Assembly (NCBI GenBank): GCA_964450385.1
Contig: CAYVEC010000008.1
Span: forward strand, 3,835-67,834
DNA: 64,000 nt
Source of the DNA: an uncultured Planctomycetales bacterium
GTDB taxonomy: Bacteria > Omnitrophota > Gorgyraeia > Zapsychrales > JANLHA01
Direction: 5' to 3'
Shown: positions 5,507 to 26,817 of the stretch, piece after piece
Numbering within the stretch: position 1 is the stretch's first letter
Layout: each line of letters opens with the position of its first letter
Notes under the pieces: generated by a model
What the model saw: the letters and a program-made list of their open reading frames with translations, nothing else
The model's database searches: none
What the model was told of the DNA's origin: nothing
Translations under genes and position numbers: made by a program

Positions 5507-6259
5507 ATGCGTCAGTGGTGTGCCATCGTTTTGTGTCTTATCTTCTTAGGGATCTCAGGGACGACTCGCGCCAAAGAGCCAGGCAAGGATATTACCCTTG
5601 AGGTCGTGGATCCACGCATCGACACGGTTAATGGGGGCACGGCACTCTACCTCCGCACAATCCTCCACAATAATTCTCCGACAATAAAAATCGATATCAC
5701 CGGCGATCCCTCGATGACCCTCACGGACAATTTTAATAATGCCTATCGGGTCATTCGCACAGCAGCTGCAGACAAGGATCATCAGATACCGCGCTCACTC
5801 TATCCCGGAGGGTCGTTTGCAGTGCATAGTTGGTTTGAGCCGCCGGTTGAGGGGGCCACGGAGTTAACGGTCACCCTGACCCTGCCGGGGCCAGTCGAAC
5901 CCGTCGTTGGGCACGCAGTGCTCCCTGCGTCTCAGATCCCCAGGGCCACCGCAATCCCTGACGCTGACTTTGACTTTTTTATCGAGACGCCACAGCGTGG
6001 CGCCGCCGTTCGAGCAGGGAGCCAGATCGCCATCCGGATCATCCCGGTTGACTTTGCGGCATTTCCCGATAAAATACACATACTTGCGTTTAATTATGTA
6101 TTAACCGATGACCAGGCGATAGGAAATTACGAGATCCGCATCCCAGCGGATGTGCCGAGCGGCACTGAGGTCCCGGTCGTTATTATGGTCGAATGGGAAA
6201 CCGAAGGCCAGGAACCGCGGATACGTTCCAAGACAATTTCTCTTCGCGTTAGCAGCTGA
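5507..6259 (+). CDS. hypothetical secreted protein
   Basis: Signal peptide WCAIVLCLIFLGISGTTRA. 250 aa, beta-rich composition. Confidence 0.5.
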   Translation: MRQWCAIVLCLIFLGISGTTRAKEPGKDITLEVVDPRIDTVNGGTALYLRTILHNNSPTIKIDITGDPSMTLTDNFNNAYRVIRTAAADKDHQIPRSLYPGGSFAVHSWFEPPVEGATELTVTLTLPGPVEPVVGHAVLPASQIPRATAIPDADFDFFIETPQRGAAVRAGSQIAIRIIPVDFAAFPDKIHILAFNYVLTDDQAIGNYEIRIPADVPSGTEVPVVIMVEWETEGQEPRIRSKTISLRVSS

Positions 6260-6270
6260 ACACCTGTCTT

Positions 6271-7755
6271 ATGCATTTTTTGTATCAACGAGCCGCATTA
6301 ATTCTTCTTATCGCAGCTGGATTTTTTTTCGCGGCGGGGGGCTCGGCCCATGCCGAAGGCACGACGGATCCTGCTCAGTCGGCCCCGTTCATTCAGGCCG
6401 TGCAACATCTTAAGAACGATTGCGAAAATTCAGCAGCTCTCCAGGCGATTCTTGATGTCCTCAAGTCCGGCACGGAACGTCTGGATGATCCGAACCGGCA
6501 GGCATGGCTGCGGGTCTCGGATCAGTTTGATTATCTTGCATTTTTACAAGCTCGTGTCACCTTCTACCGCCAGAGCAACGAACGAATCCGCTCACAGCTG
6601 GTGGCGAACGGCGTGGCGATGATCCCCGAGGAAAAACTCGCCGCGGAACCTGCGTCAATAACGCCGGTTTTTCCCGATGGTTCCGCGGATGTGACGCTTT
6701 TTGACCGCGATCCCTCTGCCGGTCTGCCGGTTGACCGTGCCGCCGACGCGGTCCGCGATATTCAGCAACAGCTCGTGGCCCGCCTTGACCGTGTCCAGGA
6801 ACTGAATCAACGGCTGCGCGCATGCCAGCGCGAGCGGTATCAGACGCTGGCGGTCGAAACCCAGAATTCCGTGATGACAACGGATCGTTCTCTTGTCAAA
6901 ACGCTTGAAGAAAAAGAGGGCATTATCGATCAACAGCGGCAGCAGATCGAAGACCTCGAGAAGGGGTTTCAAGGGGTGCAGCATGAGGTGGGGGGGCTTC
7001 GGGACCAGATCGCGGATAATAATGAGCGCATCAAACAAATGACCGCTGATCTGGCCAGTCTCACGCTCACCTCGCATGAAAAAGATTTTGCCCTGGCTGA
7101 GCGCAACCAGCGGCTTCAGGACCTTGAGGCCACGGTCACGGAAACAACCGAACGCCTGCGGCTTGTTCAAAAAATCATTGCGGAAAAAGACACGTATATC
7201 CAGGACCTCGAACAACGGATCGATCAGATCGCCGCGATACCCACGAAGGCCACGTCTGTGACGGTCGATGACCTAAAGACCGAGGTCAATGAGATCCGAT
7301 CGTCGATGACGGATCAGGCCATGGCGCACGAGGAGCAGATCCTTGAACTTGCCGCTGCGGTTCAGCAGATGGCCGATCAATATGACGCCCTCAAGATCGA
7401 TGATTTTAAAAAGACGGTCATTATTCAAAAGATGCAGGGGCTTCTGGCTGAACGGTCCGATGAACTCGCCCGTACCCAGGCGCTCAGCACTTCGAAAGAC
7501 ACGGCCCTGATCCAGCTTCGGGAACGGGTCCGGCAATATCGCCTCAAGATCGCTGAACTGACCCTCCAATTAATAAAGTCCGACGGAAATGGTCGATTGA
7601 ATTCAGGCTCAAGCGATCGACGCGCTCAAGGCATCACCGAGGATAGCGAGCCGGCGGCGCGTGTCTCGGCGGTGGATCCGCTCCCTGCACTACCAGCCAT
7701 TTATGAAAGGACCGTTGCCCATGTGGAGAAACTCTTCCAGAATACCCAGCCCTGA
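6271..7755 (+). CDS. secreted long coiled-coil protein (TPR-like N-terminus, Pro-rich C-terminus)
   Basis: Signal peptide, then about 300 aa of heptad-like Q/E/L-rich sequence (DLEKGFQGVQHEV...LQDLEATVTETTERLRLVQKIIAEKD...). Confidence 0.5.
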   Translation: MHFLYQRAALILLIAAGFFFAAGGSAHAEGTTDPAQSAPFIQAVQHLKNDCENSAALQAILDVLKSGTERLDDPNRQAWLRVSDQFDYLAFLQARVTFYRQSNERIRSQLVANGVAMIPEEKLAAEPASITPVFPDGSADVTLFDRDPSAGLPVDRAADAVRDIQQQLVARLDRVQELNQRLRACQRERYQTLAVETQNSVMTTDRSLVKTLEEKEGIIDQQRQQIEDLEKGFQGVQHEVGGLRDQIADNNERIKQMTADLASLTLTSHEKDFALAERNQRLQDLEATVTETTERLRLVQKIIAEKDTYIQDLEQRIDQIAAIPTKATSVTVDDLKTEVNEIRSSMTDQAMAHEEQILELAAAVQQMADQYDALKIDDFKKTVIIQKMQGLLAERSDELARTQALSTSKDTALIQLRERVRQYRLKIAELTLQLIKSDGNGRLNSGSSDRRAQGITEDSEPAARVSAVDPLPALPAIYERTVAHVEKLFQNTQP

Positions 7756-9259
7756 TCCGCGCGTGTTGGCGGTGCGGTTTCCGATTATTCTTTTAATGGT
7801 CTTGGTCGGTTTCTTTGGCGTGGGCGCTCGGGCTCTCGCCTCGGACGGATTGATTGCGCCGGAGATCGCTGACGCGGTCGTTAAGATTTACGTCACCTCG
7901 AATCCGATGGATTATTCGATGCCATGGCAATCCGCGGGCAGCGGATCCCAGACCGGTTCCGGATGCGTTCTTCCCGGCGGACGGATCATCACGAATGCCC
8001 ATGTCGTGACCGACCACACCTTTATTCAGGTGCGCAAACAGTCTTCCCCCAAAAAATACACGGCCCGTGTCGAGGCGATCGGCCACGACTGTGATCTGGC
8101 CTTGATCACAGTCGACGATCCGGCCTTCTTTGAGGACATCACGCCCCTCGAATTCGGCGATCTTCCCCAGCTTCAGGATTCGGTGTCGGTCATTGGATTT
8201 CCGATGGGCGGCGACAAACAGTCGTTCACGAAGGGTGTCGTCTCACGGATCGAGGTCGTTCCCTACGCCCAGACGTATAAGCCGTTGTTGGCCGTGCAGA
8301 TCGACGCGGCGATCAATCCCGGCAACAGCGGGGGGCCGGTCATTCAGAATGGAAAACTCGTCGGTGTCGCCATGCAGCTCATCGCGAGCAGCCAGAACAT
8401 CGGATTCATGATCCCGATGCCGATCATTCAGCATTTTCTTAACGATTTAAAGGACGGGGTCTATCATGGTTTCCCCTCACTGGGGATCGACTTTTCCAAC
8501 GCTGAAAATGATGCCCTGCGCGAATTCTACCGGATCTCCGGTGACGATGGAGGGATCGTGGTCTCCGGGGTATTGCCGTTCTCTCCTGCGAACTCCGTGC
8601 TCCAAAAAGATGACATTCTCCTAACCGTTGATGGAATCCGGATCGATCCGGATGGGACCTTCCCGTTCCGCCAGAATGAGCGCCTTGATTTTTCGCATCT
8701 TGTGACCCAGAAGCAGATCGGCGAGTCGATCTCCTTCCATATCCTGCGCCAGGGTAAGGTCATTGAAAAGACGATCACATTTTCCGAATTCAAAGCCCTT
8801 GTTGCCCCGCCGCGGACCTGGCAGCGTCCGCCGTATTACATTTATGGCGGGCTTGTTTTTACGGTGCTTAGCATGGACCTTCTTCAGACCTGGGGAAATG
8901 AATGGTGGGCCCGGGCTCCGACAAACTTCTTGTATTACACTTTTGGCACGGGGCGTCAGAACATCGAAAAAAAAGGAGAGCTCGTTGTGCTCCTTGCGGT
9001 TCTACCGGATGACATCAATATTGGGTATACCGGCATCGCCAACGAGATCATCACCTCAGTGAACGATCAGGGTTTTTCGGATTTTAAGGAGTTCGTCCGA
9101 CTTGTGGAATCGAGCCGGGCAGATTTTATGGTGTTTAAAACAGACCGGAATCAGAAAATCATCCTTAAAACCAAGGGCATAGAGGCCATTAATCAGGATA
9201 TTCTGACACGGAATACCATACCGGCAAAGCAATCAGAACATTTTACTGCTAAGCACTAA
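7721..9259 (+). CDS. HtrA/DegP-family trypsin-like serine protease with PDZ domain
   Basis: Catalytic motifs TNAHVV (His), DLALI (Asp) and GNSGGPV (Ser). PDZ-like GIVVSGVLPFSPA...DDILLTVDG. Start could be ATG 7721 or GTG 7763; signal-like ILLMVLVGFFGVGARALA follows. Confidence 0.75.
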   Translation: MWRNSSRIPSPDPRVLAVRFPIILLMVLVGFFGVGARALASDGLIAPEIADAVVKIYVTSNPMDYSMPWQSAGSGSQTGSGCVLPGGRIITNAHVVTDHTFIQVRKQSSPKKYTARVEAIGHDCDLALITVDDPAFFEDITPLEFGDLPQLQDSVSVIGFPMGGDKQSFTKGVVSRIEVVPYAQTYKPLLAVQIDAAINPGNSGGPVIQNGKLVGVAMQLIASSQNIGFMIPMPIIQHFLNDLKDGVYHGFPSLGIDFSNAENDALREFYRISGDDGGIVVSGVLPFSPANSVLQKDDILLTVDGIRIDPDGTFPFRQNERLDFSHLVTQKQIGESISFHILRQGKVIEKTITFSEFKALVAPPRTWQRPPYYIYGGLVFTVLSMDLLQTWGNEWWARAPTNFLYYTFGTGRQNIEKKGELVVLLAVLPDDINIGYTGIANEIITSVNDQGFSDFKEFVRLVESSRADFMVFKTDRNQKIILKTKGIEAINQDILTRNTIPAKQSEHFTAKH

Positions 9260-9416: not shown

Positions 9417-10796
9417 ATGACAAATAGTTTACTAATTAAAATATGCAAAATCGCGCTGATAAGCCTTTTTTCGCTGATTATCTGGAATGCGAGAGCAGAG
9501 GCTTCAATAAGTTTGGATGCGACCCCAATCCAAGGCGGCACAACACTGCGTTTCGGACGGATGGATGTCCTTGAGGGGGCGAGTAAAGAAGTTCGTGTTC
9601 GGATCAACACGAGCGAAACGACCCAGTATCAGGTCTTTCAGCAGATGATCCAGCCGATCACGTCCACGCAAGGCCGGCTGGCTGATTCCAGCCTATTGCA
9701 ATACTATGCCCTGCCCGGATCCAATTCCAGCGGGACGCTTTATGGCCAAGTCCCGCAAGGGGTATCACGCGCCGAAGAGCTCGTGTATTCGTCATCAGGG
9801 AACGGATCAAGCGACCGTTTTGTTCTGGTTTTTAATGTGAATCAAAACCTGCTGGATGATGGCGGGGAATATTCAGGCCAACTTTTACTCACACTTCGTC
9901 CGATCGGTCCTGGCTCGACCGAGCAGGTCTACATCAATGTGGTGATCGATGCGGAGGTCGATCAGTCGATCCGCTTTAATGATGCGCGAAGCTCAATTGA
10001 GCTCTCGACACTGCGAGCAGATCAAATGCAGGCGGATCTGAGCCTCTCCTTTGAGGTGAATGGCGGCATCAAGCTCTACCAGGAGATTGTCCAGGTCCCG
10101 GTCCATGAGCAGGGGGGGCATGACCTTGATCTTGGCGCCGTGCTCCTGACCGTTGCCGGTGAGGATCCGGCCGGACAAACGCACGTGGCTCCCGGCGAGG
10201 CCCTCACCCTGCAACGGCAATTGATCTTTGAAACCTCAACCTCGAGCGGTACGTGTCATCTCATGTACCAGATCGATCCCGACCGAGCAGAATCTCTTTC
10301 TGCCGGGCGGTATCGTGGACTCGTCCGTTATTACATTCAGACGCGGCGGGGCGAGGAAATTCTTGAAAAATATTTATCAGTTCATGTAGAGCCCATCTTT
10401 AGTATCCAGGTGTCTTTCCCTGATGGGCCGCTCTTCTTTAAGAATTTATTGCCAGGCGGCGCGCCCATGTTTTATTCCGTCGTTGCAACAGTTCAGACGA
10501 ACTTGGGTCGGCCGTATCAGGTCACACAGGAAATGGTCTCGCCGATGGTGAATGAAAAAGGGGATCCATTAGATCTGGACAACTTTTTGATTAGAACCGA
10601 GCTGTTGGAAGATTCTACGGGGAAAATTCAGCATTCGGACTTTGTGCCGTTTGCCCGGACTCGGGGGACGTTGTTCCTCTCGGACGCGGCAGGGTCGCCG
10701 GCTGAATTTCGCGTACTCTACCAAGTGAAGCCGTACAGCACCATGATCCCGGGGAACTACGCCTCGGAAATCCGTTATTCACTTGGTGAGATGTAA
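9417..10796 (+). CDS. secreted two-domain protein, candidate tip/adhesin-like fibre subunit
   Basis: Signal peptide IALISLFSLIIWNARAEA. C-terminus GNYASEIRYSL has the alternating-hydrophobic pattern of donor-strand-accepting pilins. No family assignment is possible by eye. Confidence 0.4.
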   Translation: MTNSLLIKICKIALISLFSLIIWNARAEASISLDATPIQGGTTLRFGRMDVLEGASKEVRVRINTSETTQYQVFQQMIQPITSTQGRLADSSLLQYYALPGSNSSGTLYGQVPQGVSRAEELVYSSSGNGSSDRFVLVFNVNQNLLDDGGEYSGQLLLTLRPIGPGSTEQVYINVVIDAEVDQSIRFNDARSSIELSTLRADQMQADLSLSFEVNGGIKLYQEIVQVPVHEQGGHDLDLGAVLLTVAGEDPAGQTHVAPGEALTLQRQLIFETSTSSGTCHLMYQIDPDRAESLSAGRYRGLVRYYIQTRRGEEILEKYLSVHVEPIFSIQVSFPDGPLFFKNLLPGGAPMFYSVVATVQTNLGRPYQVTQEMVSPMVNEKGDPLDLDNFLIRTELLEDSTGKIQHSDFVPFARTRGTLFLSDAAGSPAEFRVLYQVKPYSTMIPGNYASEIRYSLGEM

Positions 10797-10842
10797 TTCC
10801 CTGCTCGATCGTATACATGATGGTTAACCAGAAGGAGGTTTT

Positions 10843-11463
10843 ATGAAAAAACTCAACCCCATATGTATCGTTGCCTTGACGGTCGCGATGATCGTCAGCG
10901 CAACAACAGTGTGGGCCGCAGAGCAGGCGTTCCCGATTGCTGTCAGCATTCCGGCCGCCACCGCTGTGACCTTCACTGTCAGCAAAGTTACCGGGACAAC
11001 CTGGGCAACTAACAACTACAACCTGGAGTTCGGGCAGCTCGATTTCGAACCGGTGAATAAGATCTTTACTGCACCGTTTTATTTCGCGATCGATCTTGGT
11101 TCGAACGGAACAGGCGCCGGGGTGCCGGATGAGATCAAACTTACCTATAGTGAGTCATCCAATCCCAACAGCGTCGCGGGTACTGGCCGCCGAGGGCTCG
11201 GTTACAAAAGTGTCGTGACCGTTGCGAAGGCGATTGAAGACAGCGCGGACTCTGTGCTGCACAAGGTCCTGTTGCAAAAAGTCGGTTCCATTGACGCCTT
11301 GGATAAGACGTCATTCGTCGGCGGTTGGCCGCGTGTTTATGTCGGCATCTATGACGGCAACGCGAAAAACAGCAGCGGCGATGCAGATGAGGAGCTCTTT
11401 ACCCTCGAAGACGCGCCCGGTGATTATCTCGGCGTTTTAACGATTACAGCGATTGTGAACTAA
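10843..11463 (+). CDS. secreted ~200-aa protein, candidate major fibre/pilin-like subunit (SCPU/Csu-like)
   Basis: Strong SD (AGGAGG). Signal peptide ends VWA. Post-signal alternating segment IAVSIPAATAVTFTV. C-terminal GDYLGVLTITAIVN resembles the chaperone-usher pilin F-strand motif. Confidence 0.4.
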   Translation: MKKLNPICIVALTVAMIVSATTVWAAEQAFPIAVSIPAATAVTFTVSKVTGTTWATNNYNLEFGQLDFEPVNKIFTAPFYFAIDLGSNGTGAGVPDEIKLTYSESSNPNSVAGTGRRGLGYKSVVTVAKAIEDSADSVLHKVLLQKVGSIDALDKTSFVGGWPRVYVGIYDGNAKNSSGDADEELFTLEDAPGDYLGVLTITAIVN

Positions 11464-11476
11464 CATTAGGGAAAAA

Positions 11477-11524
11477 AGAGGCACCTGTTTGTGGACTGTG
11501 TACAGCACCGCGACAGGTGCCTCT
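11477..11524 (+). other. intercistronic stem-loop (12-bp perfect GC-rich stem, 24-nt loop) with no following U-tract
   Basis: AGAGGCACCTGT (11477-11488) pairs with ACAGGTGCCTCT (11513-11524). It lies immediately after the putative subunit gene. Confidence 0.5.
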
Positions 11525-11559
11525 TGAAACATGGTTCGAACACAACGAAAGAAGCTCCA

Positions 11560-12402
11560 ATGGCCTTAAAACGGATCGGATATTTGCTCGGATTCCTCGT
11601 GGTCTGGCAGTGCGCTCAGACAGGCCCGCTTTATGCACAGGTCTTGGTTCAAGAAGGCAAGATCAAAGAAGCCCTAATGCCCGGGCAAAAAAAGGCAGGG
11701 GTCATTACGATCCATAACACATCGAATGAGCCAATCGATATCCGGTCTTATTTTGAAGATTTTAAATATGAGGAGCCCTTTCGTGGGAAAAAAGAATTCC
11801 TTGCCGCCGGAAGCGCCCAAGACTCATGCAGCGCCTGGATCAAATTTTATCCTCAGAATTTTTCCCTGGCCCCGTTCGCAAAAGAGGAGATCAACTACAC
11901 GATCAGCTTTCCAGATGATGCTCAGGGCGGGTATTACTGTGTTCTCTTTTTTGAGAAGTCATTGGGGACGATCCGGCCAGCCGGCAATGATCCAGCGGAT
12001 GTATCTCAGCCCGGCGTCTCGGTGGTGGCTCGGGTCGGCACTCTTTTTTTTCTTGAGTCCTCAGCCCGAAAAAAAACAATCCAGGTGGATGACCTTAGAT
12101 TTGAGCAATCGACATTGACGGGCTCCGTTACAAACACCGGTGATGTCACGCTTGTCATTAAGCCGATCTATTATTTAATCAGCACGAATGGCGTTCCGAG
12201 TGACCGTGGAGAACGCGAGAAGATATACCTTCCGGCCGGAGAGACCACTAAATTTGATGTCCCGATGTCGGATCAATTAGCAGAGGGGCGGCACGATCTT
12301 GTGATCACCTTTGATCTCGAAGACGGGATTTCGCATGTCGTTGAAGGAAAGATTAACCGGTCACGTCAAGAAGGATTCTCAATAACGAATATTCGGCAAT
12401 AG
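11560..12402 (+). CDS. secreted two-domain beta-rich protein, candidate periplasmic chaperone-like component
   Basis: Signal peptide ALKRIGYLLGFLVVWQCAQTGPLYAQV. Beta-strand-like segments GVITIHNTSNEPIDIRSYF and VTLVIKPIYYLIS. The start may instead be upstream at 11491 in the same frame. Confidence 0.35.
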   Translation: MALKRIGYLLGFLVVWQCAQTGPLYAQVLVQEGKIKEALMPGQKKAGVITIHNTSNEPIDIRSYFEDFKYEEPFRGKKEFLAAGSAQDSCSAWIKFYPQNFSLAPFAKEEINYTISFPDDAQGGYYCVLFFEKSLGTIRPAGNDPADVSQPGVSVVARVGTLFFLESSARKKTIQVDDLRFEQSTLTGSVTNTGDVTLVIKPIYYLISTNGVPSDRGEREKIYLPAGETTKFDVPMSDQLAEGRHDLVITFDLEDGISHVVEGKINRSRQEGFSITNIRQ

Positions 12403-12439
12403 CTGGACCGGGAGTGATGGGCAACTACAACTGGAAACA

Positions 12440-15328
12440 ATGAACGCGCGATCAATTATTGTTATTGGAATCATGTGTCTTGTCGCCACTGTGAGTGATC
12501 TCCCGGGAGGCACGCAAGAGGCCTGTGCCCAGTACACGAATATCTTTCATTCGTATATGACCCAGGGGAAAGAGGCCCTCGAAGAAGGCCGCTACCAGGA
12601 TGCACTGCTCTTTTTTGAGACTGCGCAGATCGTTAGCCCCGGAGACGCTGAGCTCAATCAGTATCTAAATCTTGTCAAGCGTCACATTGAGGATCGGATT
12701 CAGGGCGCTCCGATCCAACCCGCAAAGAGTCGAAGCGTTCCCGCTGATGTCCCAGCTGCCACGTCGTATAAAGAAGCAGCCCGTGTTTCGGCCAGCGCGG
12801 ATCCCCGTCCGGCACTTGGGTCGAGACCGAAACCCGCGATCACGCGTGTGTCTCCTGAACCGGATGTGACAACACCTATCCTTGATCTGCCGCCGCAGGA
12901 TCAGACCCCGGTTGCCGCCACCCCGAATGTCGCGCTCCCATACCAAAAAAATTTTAAAACGATCGCTCTTGACCTCGACGCGACACTCTGGGCATCACAG
13001 CCCAATACCCTTCTTGAGATCCCGTTAAATACAAAAGTCCTTGTCCGGTCGACTGCGACCATTGAACGGTATCTGGTGATCATCCCGGACCAGATCGCGG
13101 TGGAACGGGTGAGCCATAGCGAGATTATCCTGACACCGCTCAAGCGCGGCCAGACATTTTTTCACCTCTGGGACAGCAATGACCAGCGCTGGACATTCAA
13201 TATCGCGAACGTCCTGCCGCTGTCCGAGCAGAACATCTTCGACGTTAGCGAACCTCAGCGCCAGACGTCCTTTGACAATTTCAAAATCACCTATGACACC
13301 TCCTGGAACTCGTTTTATACCGGGCCTAGTAAAAGCGATGTCGACAGGGACTCGATGCTGTTTCGAAATACATTCGGCATCTATGGGCCGACACCCTATG
13401 GCCGCGTTGACGGAAGCATCACGTATAGTCGAACCGATATCGAACCCACGAAGGCCAAGGATTATACGGCAGGGATCACCGAGGGATATATCGGCCCACT
13501 GAAGGATTTTTCGCTCAGGATCTTCGATGCGCAGAGGGAGCTCTCGCCGCTTACGTTGCCGGGCCAGGTCTTTCGCGGGGCCCTCTATGAAGATAGTTTC
13601 GGGGATGGCACGTTTGACCTGACCCTATTGCGCGGCCAGGCGCGTCTTACGTATGGCCCGATCGCCCCAGGGCTGAGTCTGAGCGATGACACCTATGTCG
13701 AGGGCGGACGAATTCAATATAATCTCCCGGAGAGCAAAGATCTCGTTGCGGTGAACTATGCACATTCTTGGGGCGACGATCGATCTAGCGAGGCCAAGGA
13801 CAAGGCCTATTCTGCGGAATACGAGAAACAACTGGGCGAGTATACCCGGTTTTTTTCTGAGGTCGCCCATGACGAGGATGAGACCGCGTATCGATTGCGA
13901 ACCAAATATCAAGAAGGCCGGGACCGTTTTGAGCTCCGTTTTCGTGATATCCCGGCGGAATACGGCACCGCCATGGGAACACCGATCAATCAAGGGGAAA
14001 TCGGCACCGAGATGTCGTGGGGCACGGATTGGCACGCCTTTCAACTCTCCTCATATTTAGATGTGTACCGTGACCACAGCCTGGAGAATCCGGAAGATCC
14101 CGATGCCTTGAACACCGACTTCTCATTGTCTGCCTATCGCCCTCTGCCGGGGAAAGCGGCATGGCGGACCGACGCCTATTTTTATCACACGCCCGGGCTT
14201 ATCTCTGATGAGATTGATTATCGATTGAGCTCAACCCTTTCAAAGAATTTCTCCATATTTGGGAAAAACCTGTATAACTATCTGACGGGCAGTGTCCATC
14301 AAAAACGTTCCGACTCCAATCCCCAGACGGATTATGACCGAAACAGTGTGACCCTGGGGATGAATTATCCGCTAACAAAGAAACTCCGTCTCTTCATGAA
14401 TTATGACCTCTACTGGATCACCGATCGGGGAGGGGACAATAGTGAGAGCCATCCTGAGGCCCTGACCACAAATCTGATCTACAGTCACTCGTTTAACGAG
14501 GAGTGGCGCCTCGAGTCGAGCATCTCGTATCGCGATGAGGAACGGACCGAAGGCAGCAAAACCTTTTTAGCCGGCGAGGACAGCCTGAGTACCGGTCTGA
14601 ATCTCTCCTATTTCCCGACACCTGACTTAAGCATCTATCTGGATGGCCGGGTGCGCGACGTTTGGACGGAAAAAAATACACAGGATGCTTATACTGAATG
14701 CGATGTCCGTTTTGGGGTCCGGTCAACCTGGGATACGGGACTGTCCTGGAATCCGCAGGGAATTGTAAATGGCTATGTCTTTAAGGACGTTAACATGAAC
14801 GGCCAGCGTGATGCAGACGAACCCGGCATCGGAGGCGTTACGGTCCGGATCGGTGAGACCTCGGCCTTGACAGACCGGACCGGATGGTATTATGCCGATG
14901 TGCGCGCCGCCTCGGTCTTGATCACCCCTGATGTCCAGACGATCCCAACGGGATATATCTTTAAAGAGACGAGCGGGGCGCGCTATACCATCGGTCATGG
15001 ATCCGCGATCACCCATGATATCGCCTTGACATCAAACTCAGGGATCTTCGGCGTGGCCTTCGTTGATGCGAATGGCAACGGCACACCCGAGGCGGATGAA
15101 CAAAAGCTCCGTTCGGTTCGCGTCCTGGTGAATCGTGAGTTTGAATACGTCACGGATTCTCGCGGCGCGTATTTTGTCACGGATCTGAAGGCAGGTCAGC
15201 ATGATCTTGCGATTGATTTAGGATCGATCCCGATGGAATTTCTTCCAACCATTCCGCTCACGGCAACCATCACGATCGATGAAGGTACAACCTACATCTT
15301 TAACATCCCTGTCCAGCCGAAGAAATAA
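12440..15328 (+). CDS. 962-aa outer-membrane protein: signal peptide, TPR-like region, Pro-rich linker, pilus-formation-N (T2SS/T3SS pil_N)-like domain, predicted beta-barrel, two C-terminal Cna-B/SdrD-B-like domains
   Basis: LDLDATLWASQPNTLLEIPLNTKVLVRS...VIIPDQIAVERVSHSEIILTPLKRGQTFFHLWD matches the CpaC/RcpA N-domain pattern. There are many amphipathic aromatic-ended strands (LFMNYDLYWITD, LNLSYFPTPDLSIYLDGRV). C-terminal NGYVFKDVNMNGQRDADEPGIGGVTVRI and VDANGNGTPEADEQKLRSVRVLV are Cna-B-like. Confidence 0.45.
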   Translation: MNARSIIVIGIMCLVATVSDLPGGTQEACAQYTNIFHSYMTQGKEALEEGRYQDALLFFETAQIVSPGDAELNQYLNLVKRHIEDRIQGAPIQPAKSRSVPADVPAATSYKEAARVSASADPRPALGSRPKPAITRVSPEPDVTTPILDLPPQDQTPVAATPNVALPYQKNFKTIALDLDATLWASQPNTLLEIPLNTKVLVRSTATIERYLVIIPDQIAVERVSHSEIILTPLKRGQTFFHLWDSNDQRWTFNIANVLPLSEQNIFDVSEPQRQTSFDNFKITYDTSWNSFYTGPSKSDVDRDSMLFRNTFGIYGPTPYGRVDGSITYSRTDIEPTKAKDYTAGITEGYIGPLKDFSLRIFDAQRELSPLTLPGQVFRGALYEDSFGDGTFDLTLLRGQARLTYGPIAPGLSLSDDTYVEGGRIQYNLPESKDLVAVNYAHSWGDDRSSEAKDKAYSAEYEKQLGEYTRFFSEVAHDEDETAYRLRTKYQEGRDRFELRFRDIPAEYGTAMGTPINQGEIGTEMSWGTDWHAFQLSSYLDVYRDHSLENPEDPDALNTDFSLSAYRPLPGKAAWRTDAYFYHTPGLISDEIDYRLSSTLSKNFSIFGKNLYNYLTGSVHQKRSDSNPQTDYDRNSVTLGMNYPLTKKLRLFMNYDLYWITDRGGDNSESHPEALTTNLIYSHSFNEEWRLESSISYRDEERTEGSKTFLAGEDSLSTGLNLSYFPTPDLSIYLDGRVRDVWTEKNTQDAYTECDVRFGVRSTWDTGLSWNPQGIVNGYVFKDVNMNGQRDADEPGIGGVTVRIGETSALTDRTGWYYADVRAASVLITPDVQTIPTGYIFKETSGARYTIGHGSAITHDIALTSNSGIFGVAFVDANGNGTPEADEQKLRSVRVLVNREFEYVTDSRGAYFVTDLKAGQHDLAIDLGSIPMEFLPTIPLTATITIDEGTTYIFNIPVQPKK

Positions 15329-15331
15329 CCC

Positions 15332-15571
15332 CTAATCGGCCACAACGGTTTGCAAGACCACTGCCCGACCATCACGGATGGCGCGTGATTCCTGCATCCT
15401 GAGCGGCGAAGCCGCAGTGTTGTCAGCCAGATCCATCTCGTGTGGGAAATAGTTTAAGCCGAGAAGACGAGGGATCCTGACCGAGACAGTGAAGTTCTGG
15501 GTGTCCGCGAGTGCCAGTGGTGCGACGACTAGGGTGAAAAGGGCGATCAGAAAAAGAATCTTTCTAATCAT
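15332..15571 (-). CDS. small secreted hypothetical protein (79 aa)
   Basis: Strong SD on the minus strand (GGAAAGGAGCCAAC-ATG). Signal peptide ILFLIALFTLVVAPLALA. Confidence 0.45.
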   Translation of the reverse strand: MIRKILFLIALFTLVVAPLALADTQNFTVSVRIPRLLGLNYFPHEMDLADNTAASPLRMQESRAIRDGRAVVLQTVVAD

Positions 15572-15597: not shown

Positions 15598-15628
15598 AAA
15601 AAACCCTTCGACATTTGAAGGGTTTTTT
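15598..15628. terminator. bidirectional rho-independent terminator hairpin (A-tract/stem/T-tract)
   Basis: AAAAAACCCTTC-gacattt-GAAGGGTTTTTT. Perfect stem flanked by A6 and T6. Confidence 0.6.
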
Positions 15629-23387: not shown

Positions 23388-24455
23388 ATGATTAAGCCCG
23401 ACCAGTATTCAAAGGCGAAGATCCTCATCATCGATGACCAAAAGCTGCATCATCTTTACCTTGAAAAAATCCTTCACACGGCAGGGTTCCAAAGCATCCG
23501 ATGTCTCGCGGACCCGTTAAAGGCCCATGCCACGGTTCTTGAATTTAATCCCGACCTCATCGTCCTTGATATCCTCATGCCTCAGCTCGACGGGTTCCAG
23601 ATCATGGAGCAGCTCCATACTTTCCGTCAACGACACTATCTCCCGATCCTTGCAGTCTCAGCAGAGCAAAGTACCGACTTCCGGCTTAAGGCCCTGCGCG
23701 CCGGCGCCACGGATTTTCTCCATAAGCCCTTTGAGCATGACGAGATCATTTTTCGCATCAACAACATGTTAGAGATGCGGTTTCTCCACATGGCCCTCGA
23801 AAACCAAAACCACATCCTCGAAGATCGTGTGAACGAGCGAACGAAAGAATTAAAGAATTCACAGATCGAGATCATCCGCCGCCTCGCCCAGGCTGCTGAA
23901 TTCCGTGATAACGATACTGGGGCCCACATCATCCGCATGAGCCATTATTGCGCGGCCCTCGGACGGGCCATGGGCCTGAGCCCCGCGGATGTCGAACTCA
24001 TTCTCACAGCCAGCCCGCTCCACGATATCGGCAAGATCGGCATCCCGGACAGCATTCTCCTTAAACCAGGGAAATTGTCGCCCGAAGAATTCGAGATCAT
24101 GAAAACGCACACCACGATCGGCGCCCAGCTTTTAGCCAGCGCTAATTCCCCTGTCATGAAGATGGCCCAGGTCATCGCGCTCACCCATCATGAGCACTGG
24201 GACGGTTCCGGCTATCCCAGAGGTCTCAAAGGGGACCAGATCCCGCTCATCGGCCAGATCTGCAGTGTCTGCGATGTATTTGACGCCCTGATCTCTGAGC
24301 GGCCGTATAAACAGCCCTGGACACCCCAGCAGGCCGCACAAGAGATCATCAGTCAAAAAAACAAACAATTTAAGCCTGAATTGATCGATCAATTTGAATT
24401 GATCCTGCCCGAATTCATAAAAATCACCACGGAATGTCATAACCCCGGCGTTTAA
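23388..24455 (+). CDS. response regulator with HD-GYP c-di-GMP phosphodiesterase output domain
   Basis: REC (ILIIDDQ...LIVLDILMPQLDG). HD-GYP motifs HDIGKIGIPD and HHEHWDGSGYP. Confidence 0.85.
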   Translation: MIKPDQYSKAKILIIDDQKLHHLYLEKILHTAGFQSIRCLADPLKAHATVLEFNPDLIVLDILMPQLDGFQIMEQLHTFRQRHYLPILAVSAEQSTDFRLKALRAGATDFLHKPFEHDEIIFRINNMLEMRFLHMALENQNHILEDRVNERTKELKNSQIEIIRRLAQAAEFRDNDTGAHIIRMSHYCAALGRAMGLSPADVELILTASPLHDIGKIGIPDSILLKPGKLSPEEFEIMKTHTTIGAQLLASANSPVMKMAQVIALTHHEHWDGSGYPRGLKGDQIPLIGQICSVCDVFDALISERPYKQPWTPQQAAQEIISQKNKQFKPELIDQFELILPEFIKITTECHNPGV

Positions 24456-24534: not shown

Positions 24535-26817
24535 ATGCTTATGAACAAAACGACCGATACATCAACCTTTAAATCCTCAGTCCCGGTGCTTGATCTCAGC
24601 GAAGGGACCGAGATGCTCACCGATTTCTCACGGGAGGCCCAGCGGCATCTCATCTCAGCACGCAATTCCCTTCTTGTCCTTGAGTCCGTTCCCACCGACA
24701 AAGAGGCGATCGAAAATGTCTTTAAAACGTTCCATACGATCAGCGGGCTTGCGGACTTTCTTCAACTTCAGGATATTTTTACGCTGTCCCATGAGACGGA
24801 GACGCTGCTCAATTTCATCCGGCGCGGCACTCACGCACTCAGCCCCGAGACAGCGGCCACGGTTACCGAATCTGTTAAAGCCCTTCAGCACCTCCTTGAA
24901 CTCCTCGATGAACAGATCTCGAACAAAGGGGTCCTTCCAGGCGAGTATTTCGATATCACGGACCTTATCACACGCATCAACCGCCTGTCTCAACAGCCCG
25001 CGGGAGCCCCAACAGGCGTGGCACATCAGGGTGCCCCAGCGAAAGCGGAGGCCTCGACCATTTCAGAAGACCCGGACACCCCTACCTATGTGCTCATCCG
25101 TGACAAGTTAGAGCAGACCGGGATGGCGAGTTTCTTTCTTGAAAAAAACACCGTGAAGCACCTCATCGGCGAATTTGAGGTCCTGGAGCATCAGCTCAAG
25201 GAGGCACAGACCAAAATCCAAGAGCGGCAGCAGGAGCTCATCCATGAACGCGAGCTCGCCTTGAAATTGACCAAAAAGGCCCAGGACGATGCCCGTTCCA
25301 AAAGCGAATATCTGGCCAACATGTCGCACGAGATCCGAACGCTGATCAACGCGATCCTTGGCTTTACCGATCTCATCAAACTCGAGTTGCCGGATAACAG
25401 TAAACCGCGCGAGCACCTCAACACTATCATCGTTAGCGGCAAAATGCTCCTCGAGATCGTGAATAACATCCTCGATTTCTCCAAGGTCGAGGCCGGCAAA
25501 CTCAAACTCGAAAACATTCCCTTCAACATCCGCGATATCGCCGAAGAGATCTTCAAGATCATCCGGACCCGTCTTGATCGGAAGCCCGTAAACCTCTTTC
25601 TTGACATTGAGCCGAAGGTCCCGCTTGATCTCATGGGAGACCCGACCCGTCTCAAACAGATCTTCATGAACCTGATCGATAACGCCATCAAATTCACCGA
25701 ACGAGGCGAGATCGGGCTTCGGATCCATTATGACCAGCGCAAGGATGACCGCCATATTTTGCGCCTGAGCGTGACCGATACCGGGATCGGTATCCCGGAG
25801 GATCGGCGAGATCAGGTCTTTGACTCATTTACTCAAGCAGACGCCTCGACCACACGACTCTACGGCGGGACCGGACTCGGGCTCTCGCTGTGCCGCGCCT
25901 TTGTTGAGGCCATGGGAGGCAAAATTTGGATCGAATCGACCTTGGGGAAGGGTAGCCAATTTATTTTCACAATCGGTTTTAAGACCGCATCGGAGCGTTC
26001 GACCTCCCCCGACTACCCCGAGATCAACGGGATGAAGGCGATTATTGTTTCGCCTTTTGAGACAACCATCCGCGGCGCGCAGCGTCTTTTCGCCGATGCC
26101 TCGATGCAGCTCATGGCCGTCTGCCAAAATCCAAAACAGGTCTGTGAATACCTCAATTCCTCCGCCGCCTCGCCGGATTTTATCCTCATTGACATGCTAC
26201 TGCCGCCAGGATCAGCGTATGAACTGGCCCAACGCCTTCGCGGCCAGCCCGCGACACAAAAGATCCACCTGATTGCGATCTCCTCGGACGTCAAACTGGC
26301 CGGGGATGAGACATTTAAGAATTCTGTTTTTGACGCGTTCCTTGCCTGCCCGATCATGCTTCAGGAGATGGGGCCGATCCTTCAATCCATGAGCGGAAAA
26401 AAATCGCAGCCCACAAATGGCGAAGGTGATGCCGCCGCTTCGGATGCCGTCTTTAAAGGGGCGCGGATCCTCGTTGCCGAAGACAGTATCCCCAACCAGG
26501 AACTGCTCAAGATCCACTTTGAATCGCTCGGATGCATCTGTGACTATGCCTCGAACGGCCATGAGGCCATTGAATTCATCAAAAAAAATTCCTACCAACT
26601 CTGTTTCATGGATCTCCAAATGCCGGTCATGGGTGGGCTCGAGGCGGCCCAGATCATCCGGCAGGAGCTCCATTCAACCGTTCCGATCGTGGCCCTGACG
26701 GCTGCTGAGATCAATGAGGAGCGGGATAAATGTTTGACCATCGGGATGTCGGACTATCTTCCGAAACCCTTTGACCTGGACCAACTCAAAGATAAAATCA
26801 AAAAGTTCCTAACATAA
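24535..26817 (+). CDS. cytoplasmic hybrid histidine kinase: N-terminal Hpt (CheA-P1-like), coiled coil, HisKA, HATPase_c, two C-terminal receivers
   Basis: Hpt: NVFKTFHTISGLADFL...LSHETETLL. H-box: ANMSHEIRTLINAI. ATPase: DTGIGIPE...GGTGLGLS. REC2: ILVAEDSIPNQ...FMDLQMPVMGG. Confidence 0.8.
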   Translation: MLMNKTTDTSTFKSSVPVLDLSEGTEMLTDFSREAQRHLISARNSLLVLESVPTDKEAIENVFKTFHTISGLADFLQLQDIFTLSHETETLLNFIRRGTHALSPETAATVTESVKALQHLLELLDEQISNKGVLPGEYFDITDLITRINRLSQQPAGAPTGVAHQGAPAKAEASTISEDPDTPTYVLIRDKLEQTGMASFFLEKNTVKHLIGEFEVLEHQLKEAQTKIQERQQELIHERELALKLTKKAQDDARSKSEYLANMSHEIRTLINAILGFTDLIKLELPDNSKPREHLNTIIVSGKMLLEIVNNILDFSKVEAGKLKLENIPFNIRDIAEEIFKIIRTRLDRKPVNLFLDIEPKVPLDLMGDPTRLKQIFMNLIDNAIKFTERGEIGLRIHYDQRKDDRHILRLSVTDTGIGIPEDRRDQVFDSFTQADASTTRLYGGTGLGLSLCRAFVEAMGGKIWIESTLGKGSQFIFTIGFKTASERSTSPDYPEINGMKAIIVSPFETTIRGAQRLFADASMQLMAVCQNPKQVCEYLNSSAASPDFILIDMLLPPGSAYELAQRLRGQPATQKIHLIAISSDVKLAGDETFKNSVFDAFLACPIMLQEMGPILQSMSGKKSQPTNGEGDAAASDAVFKGARILVAEDSIPNQELLKIHFESLGCICDYASNGHEAIEFIKKNSYQLCFMDLQMPVMGGLEAAQIIRQELHSTVPIVALTAAEINEERDKCLTIGMSDYLPKPFDLDQLKDKIKKFLT

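Follow-up and report, generated by a model that had tools for sequence, protein, structure and literature searches.

The cassette and its distribution

The stretch of DNA analysed here (the window, 64,000 nucleotides of contig CAYVEC010000008.1 from an uncultured bacterium of the Omnitrophota) carries at 12440-15328, on the forward strand, an uninterrupted open reading frame (ORF) of 962 codons that translates into a protein of 962 amino acids (aa). Its gene is the last of four co-directional and tightly spaced genes spanning 9417-15328, which encode, in this order, a secreted protein of 459 aa, a candidate fibre subunit of 206 aa, a PapD-like periplasmic chaperone of about 280 aa, and the 962-aa protein itself, whose predicted fold resembles that of an usher. 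We interpret the 962-aa protein as the outer-membrane platform of a chaperone-usher (CU)-type export and assembly system, a reading to which we assign a probability of roughly 0.7; that the product of this system is a polymerised fibre we also think probable, if with somewhat less assurance.

The order of the cassette (459-aa gene, one or more subunit genes of about 206 aa, chaperone gene, usher-like gene) is the same in the window and in six further loci (L001-L004, L007 and L008). Of 47 species-representative loci retrieved via the chaperone motif YY[GAC]VLFFE, about 40 have it too, and most of those that lack a full cassette are ended by contig edges. When the ORFs of 48 loci were clustered, only the four cassette families proved to be widely conserved, being found in 48, 45, 39 and 36+8 loci. 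Genes like the one starting at 10843, whose phylogenetic profiling together with the 962-aa gene the first-pass annotation of this DNA had proposed as a check, are among these four families. Subunit genes are present in one to five copies per locus; some loci have two to five of them, or repeated subunit-chaperone pairs in which each subunit gene has a chaperone gene of its own.

A word-indexed search recovered only six full-length relatives of the 962-aa protein, whereas an exhaustive HMMER search of 1.84 billion representatives with a profile of the pil_N-type domain plus the barrel (see below) yielded 316 clusters at E <= 1e-3, 207 of them at E <= 1e-30 (clusters at 50% identity). Fragments aside, the matches listed cover nearly the full profile and have a variable N-terminus ahead of it and a tail of about 190 residues behind it. 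For the chaperone there are at least 134 clusters of homologues (at 90% identity), and those named by organism are almost all from Omnitrophota or Omnitrophica. Similarly, the named sources and GTDB species representatives are almost all Candidatus Omnitrophota, or metagenome-assembled genomes (MAGs) labelled Planctomycetales. One distant member is encoded by an Acidobacteriota MAG (L052, 529-3570 on the forward strand; E 2e-45 to the family's hidden Markov model, HMM), where it adjoins a chaperone-like gene and has the pil_N-type domain, the barrel, and Pfam matches suggesting three C-terminal domains of the CarboxypepD_reg/SdrD_B type; the family therefore extends slightly past the Omnitrophota. 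Complete or near-complete cassettes were also observed on short contigs in MAGs of a Methanosarcinales archaeon (L023) and of a member of the Lysobacterales (L034), and in these unrelated bins they most likely reflect mis-binning. The archaeal case is of some curiosity, since some Omnitrophota have been reported to attack methanogens.

Architecture of the 962-aa protein

The first-pass annotation had described the protein as a fusion of TPR, a pil_N-type domain, a single-chain beta-barrel and tandem calcium-binding-looking domains at the C-terminus, and every motif that it quoted is present in the translation: LDLDATLW...LKRGQTFFHLWD corresponds to aa 177-245, YDLYWITD, ISYRDEE and LSIYLDGRVRDVW are contained in predicted barrel strands 21, 23 and 25, respectively, and DVNMNGQRDADE and DANGNGTPEADE are found at aa 783 and aa 876. 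In Pfam, SdrD_B (PF17210) matches two stretches of the protein with 44.1 bits against a cut-off of 29.7, T2SS-T3SS_pil_N (PF13629) remains below its threshold (20.3 bits against 23, E=4.5e-4), and SlipAM and OMP_b-brl give weak matches; there was no TPR match at E <= 1, and a scan against NCBIfam gave nothing beyond Pfam. A clearer picture emerges at the level of the family, for which 52 homologues were scanned singly against Pfam at E <= 10 (what we say on families present or absent in these members rests on the 25 families listed). SdrD_B was matched in all 52 members, CarboxypepD_reg in 50, pil_N in 46 (best E 6e-10) and TPR_2 in 25 (best E 7.4e-7).

An AlphaFold2 model, built from a six-sequence alignment with a mean predicted local distance difference test (pLDDT) value of 73.8 and a predicted template modelling (pTM) score of 0.48, arranges the chain as helices (aa 24-88), a disordered segment (87-172), a beta domain (173-258), 26 strands (280-769) and two beta-sandwiches (773-960), so that a barrel is indeed predicted and the overall fold of the model is usher-like. 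The protein starts with a signal peptide (aa 1-31, 12440..12532; this and the following segments are on the forward strand) that has a basic n-region and a hydrophobic core, with a predicted cleavage site ACA|QY as read from the sequence and an A-x-A|QY(S) junction also seen in homologues. It is followed by a helical module (aa 32-88, 12533..12703) with model helices at 24-48, 52-65 and 70-88. The claim of TPR at the N-terminus thus holds in part, given the TPR_2 matches in homologues and the helices of the model; what is found here is a single TPR-like helical hairpin and not a multi-repeat domain. The next segment is a disordered linker rich in proline and alanine (aa 89-172, 12704..12955; 16 Pro and 14 Ala per 84 residues, pLDDT 25-29), which is the least conserved part among homologues and varies in length.

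The pil_N-type beta domain (aa 173-258, 12956..13213), recognised in most homologues in spite of its sub-threshold score in the 962-aa protein, has eight strands in the model and sits where the N-terminal domain of an usher would; none of 82 sequences departs from its residues W244 and R250. The predicted barrel (aa 280-769, 13277..14746) has 26 strands by DSSP, mostly in blocks with pLDDT of 80-94, strands 6-7 (aa 380-400) falling in a region of lower confidence, with short turns (2-6 residues) and longer loops (4-18 residues) alternating in a pattern like that of outer-membrane barrels. The loops are conserved as much as the strands, e.g. LTLPGQVFRG (aa 370-379) and TFLAGE (aa 708-713), and these conserved, putatively outward loops would fit a role in lining or closing the lumen. 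The two C-terminal beta-sandwiches of the SdrD_B/CarboxypepD_reg type (aa 773-865 and 866-962, 14756..15325; assigned by Pfam and motifs) show the highest conservation within the protein, and carry D-x-N-x-N-G-x-x-D/E-A-D-E motifs of the calcium-binding type, as had been noted from their sequence. Given the even number of strands in the model and a presumably periplasmic N-terminal domain, these sandwiches would be expected to be periplasmic as well, like the domains CTD1 and CTD2 of ushers, and not exposed on the surface.

A divergent PapD-like chaperone

Directly upstream lies the chaperone gene (11491..12402, forward strand), which encodes 303 aa from a GTG codon, or 280 aa from an ATG at 11560 that is followed by a clean signal peptide. 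When a profile of this family was compared with 177,635 sequences from the PDB, the sole significant match was EcpB (5dfk; E=2.5e-5 with a profile of 5 sequences and 3.9e-5 with 53), and a comparison by hhalign with eight fimbrial chaperones of Escherichia coli K-12 covered both domains (85%, E 5.9e-6). The AlphaFold2 model is of high quality (pLDDT 93.7, pTM 0.83) and consists of two beta-sandwiches, for which the top 50 Foldseek matches in the PDB consist largely of CU chaperones and include CfaA (template modelling, TM, score 0.60-0.63), Caf1M, FimC, EcpB, YadV and CsuC.

The proline at position 60 of EcpB is the only residue that is invariant across all CU chaperones (PMC4654587); its aligned counterpart here is P98, from which none of 53 sequences of the family deviates. 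Likewise, A111, A113, A115 and I117 of EcpB, donor residues that have been tested by mutagenesis (PMC4654587), align with V, V/L, A/V and V of GVSVVARVGTLFF, where hydrophobic residues alternate along the G1 strand of the family. The protein therefore shares with EcpB, CfaA and CsuC the two Ig-like domains, the invariant proline and the alternating-hydrophobic G1 strand, whereas it differs from them in being about 50 residues longer and in having a set of invariant charged residues of its own (K34, K78, E132, R158, R216 and E262), as well as in one missing arginine to which we return below. We conclude that it is a PapD-like chaperone, having most of the hallmarks of the superfamily and lacking the arginine anchor of the non-classical chaperones.

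Distant relatives of about 315 aa occur in pairs in three loci from Patescibacteria and Gammaproteobacteria MAGs (L053-L055; e.g. 5833-6798 and 7995-8939 in L055), where their matches to WxLIP_PGBD are weak (E 1e-4 to 1e-3) and an usher-like gene is absent from the vicinity. They may represent a bridge between PapD-like chaperones and the WxLIP proteins of Gram-positive bacteria.

Candidate subunits

The 206-aa protein (10843..11463, forward strand) is the candidate major fibre subunit on account of its signal peptide, N-terminal strand and C-terminal motif. Its gene is preceded by a GGAGG Shine-Dalgarno sequence, the strongest ribosome-binding site of the cassette, as would be expected of a major subunit. 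Across 52 sequences the family has a signal peptide, a strand of four alternating hydrophobic positions (consensus TFTVSATVP) that starts a few residues past the likely cleavage site (as read by eye), a second strand, and the C-terminal motif G-T-Y-x-G-T-L-T-x-T. The 459-aa protein (9417..10796, forward strand), which is the first gene of the cassette in 39 of 48 loci, is a candidate tip or adaptor subunit with three tandem subunit-like domains, each terminating in G-x-Y-x-G-x-phi-x-phi. Comparison by hhalign shows homology among the three (98-99.7%, E 1e-14 to 8e-27), and the subunit family aligns to the N-terminus and first domain of the protein (95%, E 3.5e-8). Judging by sequence, the layout of the subunits would be that expected for polymerisation by donor-strand exchange, and it would also be compatible with an ordinary Ig-like fold.

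Is the barrel protein an usher?

The first-pass annotation considered the 962-aa protein to be unlike any described usher. At the level of the fold this does not hold: in a Foldseek comparison of the model with the PDB, FimD and PapC occupy all of the first 17 ranks (E 8e-19 to 2e-7), their full-length chains aligning over 700-840 columns, and other barrels, such as porins, AlgE, TonB-dependent receptors and FadL, only begin at about 3e-7, while a PapD-like chaperone is encoded next door. Among the matched structures that comprise a barrel only, the best are the isolated translocation domains of FimD and PapC, with TM scores of 0.46-0.49. At the level of sequence, hhalign aligns the 52 members with seven E. 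coli ushers in collinear order across 660 columns, which extend from the N-terminal domain to the C-terminal domains. In this alignment the most conserved motif of the family's barrel, LTLPGxxFRGA, is aligned with FRG(V/A)xLxSDD of ushers, a motif that precedes the plug in FimD. The approximately 80 usher positions that come after this motif, in which the plug is presumably located, are squeezed onto about 47 positions of the query and are largely unmatched.

With the ushers FimD, PapC and EcpC the protein shares a large single-chain beta-barrel with a periplasmic beta domain before it and two beta-sandwiches after it, and also the placement of its gene beside those for a chaperone of the PapD type and for small, beta-rich subunits that are secreted. 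It differs in the pil_N type of its N-terminal domain, in having C-terminal domains of the SdrD_B/CarboxypepD_reg type with calcium-binding-type motifs where ushers have PapC_C, in the additional N-terminal TPR-like module on its Pro/Ala-rich linker, and in its occurrence, which is essentially restricted to Omnitrophota.

Several observations count against an usher-based system and should be considered together. Usher (PF00577), PapC_N and PapC_C had no match at E <= 1 in the 962-aa protein and are absent from the families listed for the 52 members. The alignment to the seven E. coli ushers is weak (37%, E 3.5e-4), and comparison with EcpC or FimD singly gave just 0.4%. The model contains no plug domain, its longest segment between strands being 18 residues, and has 26 strands where an usher barrel has 24; it also derives from only six aligned sequences and has, as mentioned, a pTM of 0.48. 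As to the chaperone, the PapD models of Pfam do not match its family, and WxLIP of Enterococcus gives its model a slightly better Foldseek E-value than CU chaperones do, but with a lower TM score. Furthermore, Arg89 in strand F1, which is super-conserved in non-classical chaperones and anchors the carboxylate of the subunit's C-terminus (PMC4654587), is replaced here by Ala, Gly or Cys within GGYY[ACG]VLFFE. Because this residue is replaced while the fold, the kink proline and the donor-type G1 strand are all kept, the C-terminus of the subunit must be anchored in another way, for which K34, R158 and R216 could be candidates. Neither the 206-aa nor the 459-aa protein has a match in Pfam, NCBIfam or the PDB sequences, known pilins included. 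Finally, the system is known here from genes and models, and no fibre has been seen; the main comparative study of the phylum (PMC10066038) names type IVa pili, Tad pili and giant adhesin-like ORFs only, and in the searchable literature we found no paper joining Omnitrophota with "chaperone-usher", those that contain Omnitrophota and "usher" being unrelated by their titles.

One may therefore also consider that the cassette exports or anchors Ig-like surface proteins that do not polymerise, the barrel being a translocon that works with neither donor-strand exchange nor a fibre, and the two-domain periplasmic protein being a holdase or a structural partner, in the way that WxLIP serves WxL proteins or Slam surface lipoproteins. 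WxLIP structures (DUF916/DUF3324, from WxL clusters of Gram-positive bacteria) do share the two-domain Ig-like fold and are the top Foldseek matches of the chaperone model (E 7.5e-11), and the WxLIP_PGBD matches of the distant relatives without an usher-like neighbour, the missing arginine anchor and the absence of any match to a known pilin all agree with such a scenario. Yet, at the sequence level EcpB is the only significant match of the chaperone, WxLIP having E=0.71, and in TM score CfaA (0.60-0.63) exceeds WxLIP (0.43-0.46). The chaperone also has a signal peptide and, by eye, no C-terminal hydrophobic stretch, i.e. it would be a periplasmic protein of a diderm, paired with an outer-membrane barrel, unlike WxLIP. 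A relationship to Slam (type 11 secretion) is hinted at by the N-terminal TPR that is followed by a barrel towards the C-terminus and by a SlipAM (PF04575) match at aa 597-770, which with 20.3 bits is below the cut-off of 22. The present barrel is far larger than the 14-stranded ones of Slam, and the neighbouring proteins carry no lipobox by eye. SlipAM does not recur among the families listed for the 52 members, the top 50 fold matches contain no Slam, and the best matches are ushers rather than Slam or other translocons, so that we reject the identification as Slam. The N-terminal strand and C-terminal motif of the subunits also fit proteins that polymerise by themselves. On the whole, we regard export without polymerisation as unlikely.

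A different possibility is that the usher resemblance merely reflects what any big barrel with beta-sandwiches would give, the protein acting as a general channel of the outer membrane or as a large LptD-like barrel, with periplasmic calcium-binding domains and without a functional relation to its neighbours. The barrel of LptD has 26 strands, as many as the model, and the missing plug, the lack of usher HMM matches and the low TM scores to ushers (0.3-0.5) would all be accounted for. However, in about 45 species the gene keeps the same three neighbours in an unchanged order, and it is the periplasmic domains of the protein that are conserved best. Approximately 11 orders of magnitude in Foldseek E-value separate ushers from every other class of barrel, LptD is not among the top 50 matches, and the profile alignment follows the ushers in collinear order from end to end, all of which makes this alternative quite improbable.

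The pil_N-type domain, present in most members, suggests yet another reading, namely a secretin-like protein or an accessory outer-membrane component of Tad or type IV pili. Such a domain otherwise heads the CpaC/RcpA secretins, with which it is the shared feature. Genomes of Omnitrophota do contain genes for both Tad and type IVa pili (PMC10066038). Against this, the Secretin domain was found neither in the 962-aa protein nor among the families listed for its 52 members, the predicted barrel is formed by a single chain and is not multimeric as in secretins, and genes of type IV or Tad pili are not conserved around the 962-aa gene. We consider this reading highly improbable; the secretin-like identity, like the LptD-like and the generic porin ones, was thus tested and is not supported.

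As ushers are now defined, the 962-aa protein lacks the HMM match and the plug, while it does have the fold (in a model of moderate confidence) and the genomic association. The best reading is, in our view, a deeply divergent variant of the usher and no categorically new pore. Of the earlier suggestion of a new class of fibre export pore, a pore for fibre export, accompanied by a conserved set of two subunit genes and a chaperone gene, is retained, whereas the new class is not. What would be new is a deeply divergent CU lineage that HMMs do not see, with an unusual usher and a riboswitch module, the kind of pathway itself being known.

A c-di-GMP riboswitch and a mini-protein at the end of the cassette

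Beyond the usher-like gene, 330 nt past its stop codon, lies an aptamer of the cyclic di-GMP (c-di-GMP)-I riboswitch class (RF01051; 15658..15750 on the reverse strand), with 72.8 bits against a gathering threshold of 35 and model positions 1-87 aligned, i.e. full-length. In 28 of 33 other loci (29 of 34 when the window is counted), this riboswitch or its c-di-GMP-I-GGC variant occupies the equivalent position with the same orientation. Riboswitches for c-di-GMP are typical of adhesion and biofilm genes.

On the same strand the aptamer is followed by a terminator-type hairpin (15598..15628, reverse strand; AAAAAACCCTTC-AAATGTC-GAAGGGTTTTTT) and then by a small gene (15332..15571, reverse strand) that is preceded by a ribosome-binding site and encodes a secreted protein of 79 aa. 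The hairpin is present in both the minimum free energy and the centroid fold of the leader (z = -4.1); it is symmetric, being preceded by an A-run and followed by a T-run, and for this reason it is possibly bidirectional and may also end transcripts of the usher operon. No convincing antiterminator pairing was seen when the leader sequence was inspected by eye. The small gene is convergent with the cassette, its ORF ending only 4 nt from the usher-like gene, and because these 4 nt contain no terminator-like sequence, transcription driven by the riboswitch may continue antisense into the usher gene. An antisense position relative to an adjacent gene has been reported more often for c-di-GMP riboswitches than for any other class (PMC9943018).

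In the 79-aa protein a signal peptide is followed by a subunit-like N-terminal strand (NFTVSVRIP), a linker that varies and a C-terminal strand that is conserved. In 30 other loci, homologues of 73-108 aa are encoded just beyond the usher-like gene, with the consensus SYK[VI]SVTIPAxxGxN ... [VI]RNNxxVxLKT[VI]VxK. These small proteins have no match in Pfam, NCBIfam or the PDB sequences, and since they resemble the beginning of the subunit HMM only weakly (17.6 bits at best, partly due to the signal peptide), a kinship with the subunits is suggested at the level of motifs. We propose that they could act as a cap, terminator or anchor consisting of a donor strand only, made in response to c-di-GMP.

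In nine loci an additional ORF of 77-127 aa lies between the riboswitch and the mini-protein gene (L004 6857-7090 and L008 11832-12158, both on the reverse strand, L020, L023, L029, L031, L037, L043 and L045). Its consensus is RVVTFLNRxEVDFLDKLGKDALFSTGxKLSRxKLIAWLVDF; it has no Pfam match and is not present in the window. Another gene that may touch on c-di-GMP is located 8 kb from the riboswitch (23388-24455, forward strand) and encodes a receiver domain followed by a domain of the HD-GYP type (HHEHWDGSGYP). Its product is probably a c-di-GMP phosphodiesterase, and the syntenic gene of L001 has Response_reg, HD_5 and HD. The gene after it (24535-26817) is for a hybrid histidine kinase.

A proposed assembly pathway

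Taking the cassette as a CU-type system, we suggest that the 206-aa subunit and the three-domain 459-aa protein would be exported via Sec and captured in the periplasm by the PapD-like chaperone, whose G1 strand GVSVVARVGTLFF would fill the groove of an incomplete Ig-like subunit. The chaperone-subunit complexes would then dock on the periplasmic pil_N-type domain and be passed on to the two putatively calcium-binding SdrD_B-type C-terminal domains. There the N-terminal strand of the incoming subunit, of the TFTVSATVP type, would displace the strand of the chaperone, with the fibre being threaded through the barrel of 24-26 strands. As the plug domain is absent, the resting pore would probably be closed by the conserved loops folded into the lumen, or else by one of the periplasmic domains. 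Probable roles of the TPR-like module, with its Pro-rich tether, are to anchor the machine within the periplasm or to position it there, and the small protein under riboswitch control, having a subunit-like strand without the body of a subunit, would probably cap, terminate or anchor the fibre. Of all this, the conserved cassette, the homology of the chaperone, the usher-like predicted fold and the riboswitch are observed, whereas donor-strand complementation and exchange, polymerisation, topology, gating and the tasks of the TPR-like module and the small protein belong to the proposal.

One could go further and combine all these elements into a seventh, deep-branching type of CU system, in which a plugless, TPR-tethered usher is gated by lumen loops or by calcium-binding periplasmic domains, a riboswitch-controlled mini-subunit consisting of a donor strand only starts, caps or anchors the fibre, and the fibre is the organelle by which ultra-small, host-dependent Omnitrophota attach to their hosts. 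This remains tentative, and we consider it less likely than not.

Most descriptions of CU pili come from Proteobacteria and a few further phyla, and their recognition relies on the Usher and PapD HMMs. The 316 usher-like and at least 134 chaperone clusters would amount to a whole lineage of CU-like systems that is invisible to Pfam and NCBIfam, and which could be detected only through structure prediction, profile comparison and synteny. If so, the uncultivated, ultra-small and probably host-dependent Omnitrophota gain a candidate adhesive fibre besides their type IV and Tad pili. Such systems would also provide a natural experiment on what an usher requires, given the absence of a plug, the different N- and C-terminal domains and the calcium-binding motifs, and from an evolutionary viewpoint they hint at a link between PapD-like chaperones and the WxLIP proteins of Gram-positive bacteria. 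The regulatory module would be a simple one, in which a c-di-GMP riboswitch drives a mini-subunit; if it acts on the fibre as supposed, c-di-GMP would be linked to pilus assembly directly at the level of RNA, which is not known from any CU system.

Neighbouring genes

The gene order of the window is shared with the Omnitrophota contig L001 over more than 20 kb. Upstream of the cassette, a secreted protein of 250 aa that has no Pfam or NCBIfam match (5507-6259, forward strand) precedes the gene for a secreted coiled-coil protein of 494 aa (6271-7755, forward strand), and the latter is followed by that for a protease of the HtrA/DegP type with Trypsin_2, PDZ and PDZ_3 domains (7661-9259, forward strand). 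In P-pilus biogenesis DegP is a quality-control protease for unassembled pilins. The coiled-coil and protease genes lie directly upstream of the cassette and are both upstream of it in L001 too, but not in L002 or L007, and a coiled-coil homologue is also found upstream in L013. The coiled-coil protein of L001 shares the TPR-like N-terminal module with the N-termini of the usher-like proteins (29% over 73 aa, E 2e-4; E 4e-7 by HMM). The order shared with L001 comprises the HtrA-family protease, the coiled-coil protein, the cassette, a HAD-family hydrolase and an NAD kinase, and it continues with a HhH-GPD/NUDIX glycosylase (MutY-like), SurE, the REC-HD(-GYP) protein and the hybrid kinase.

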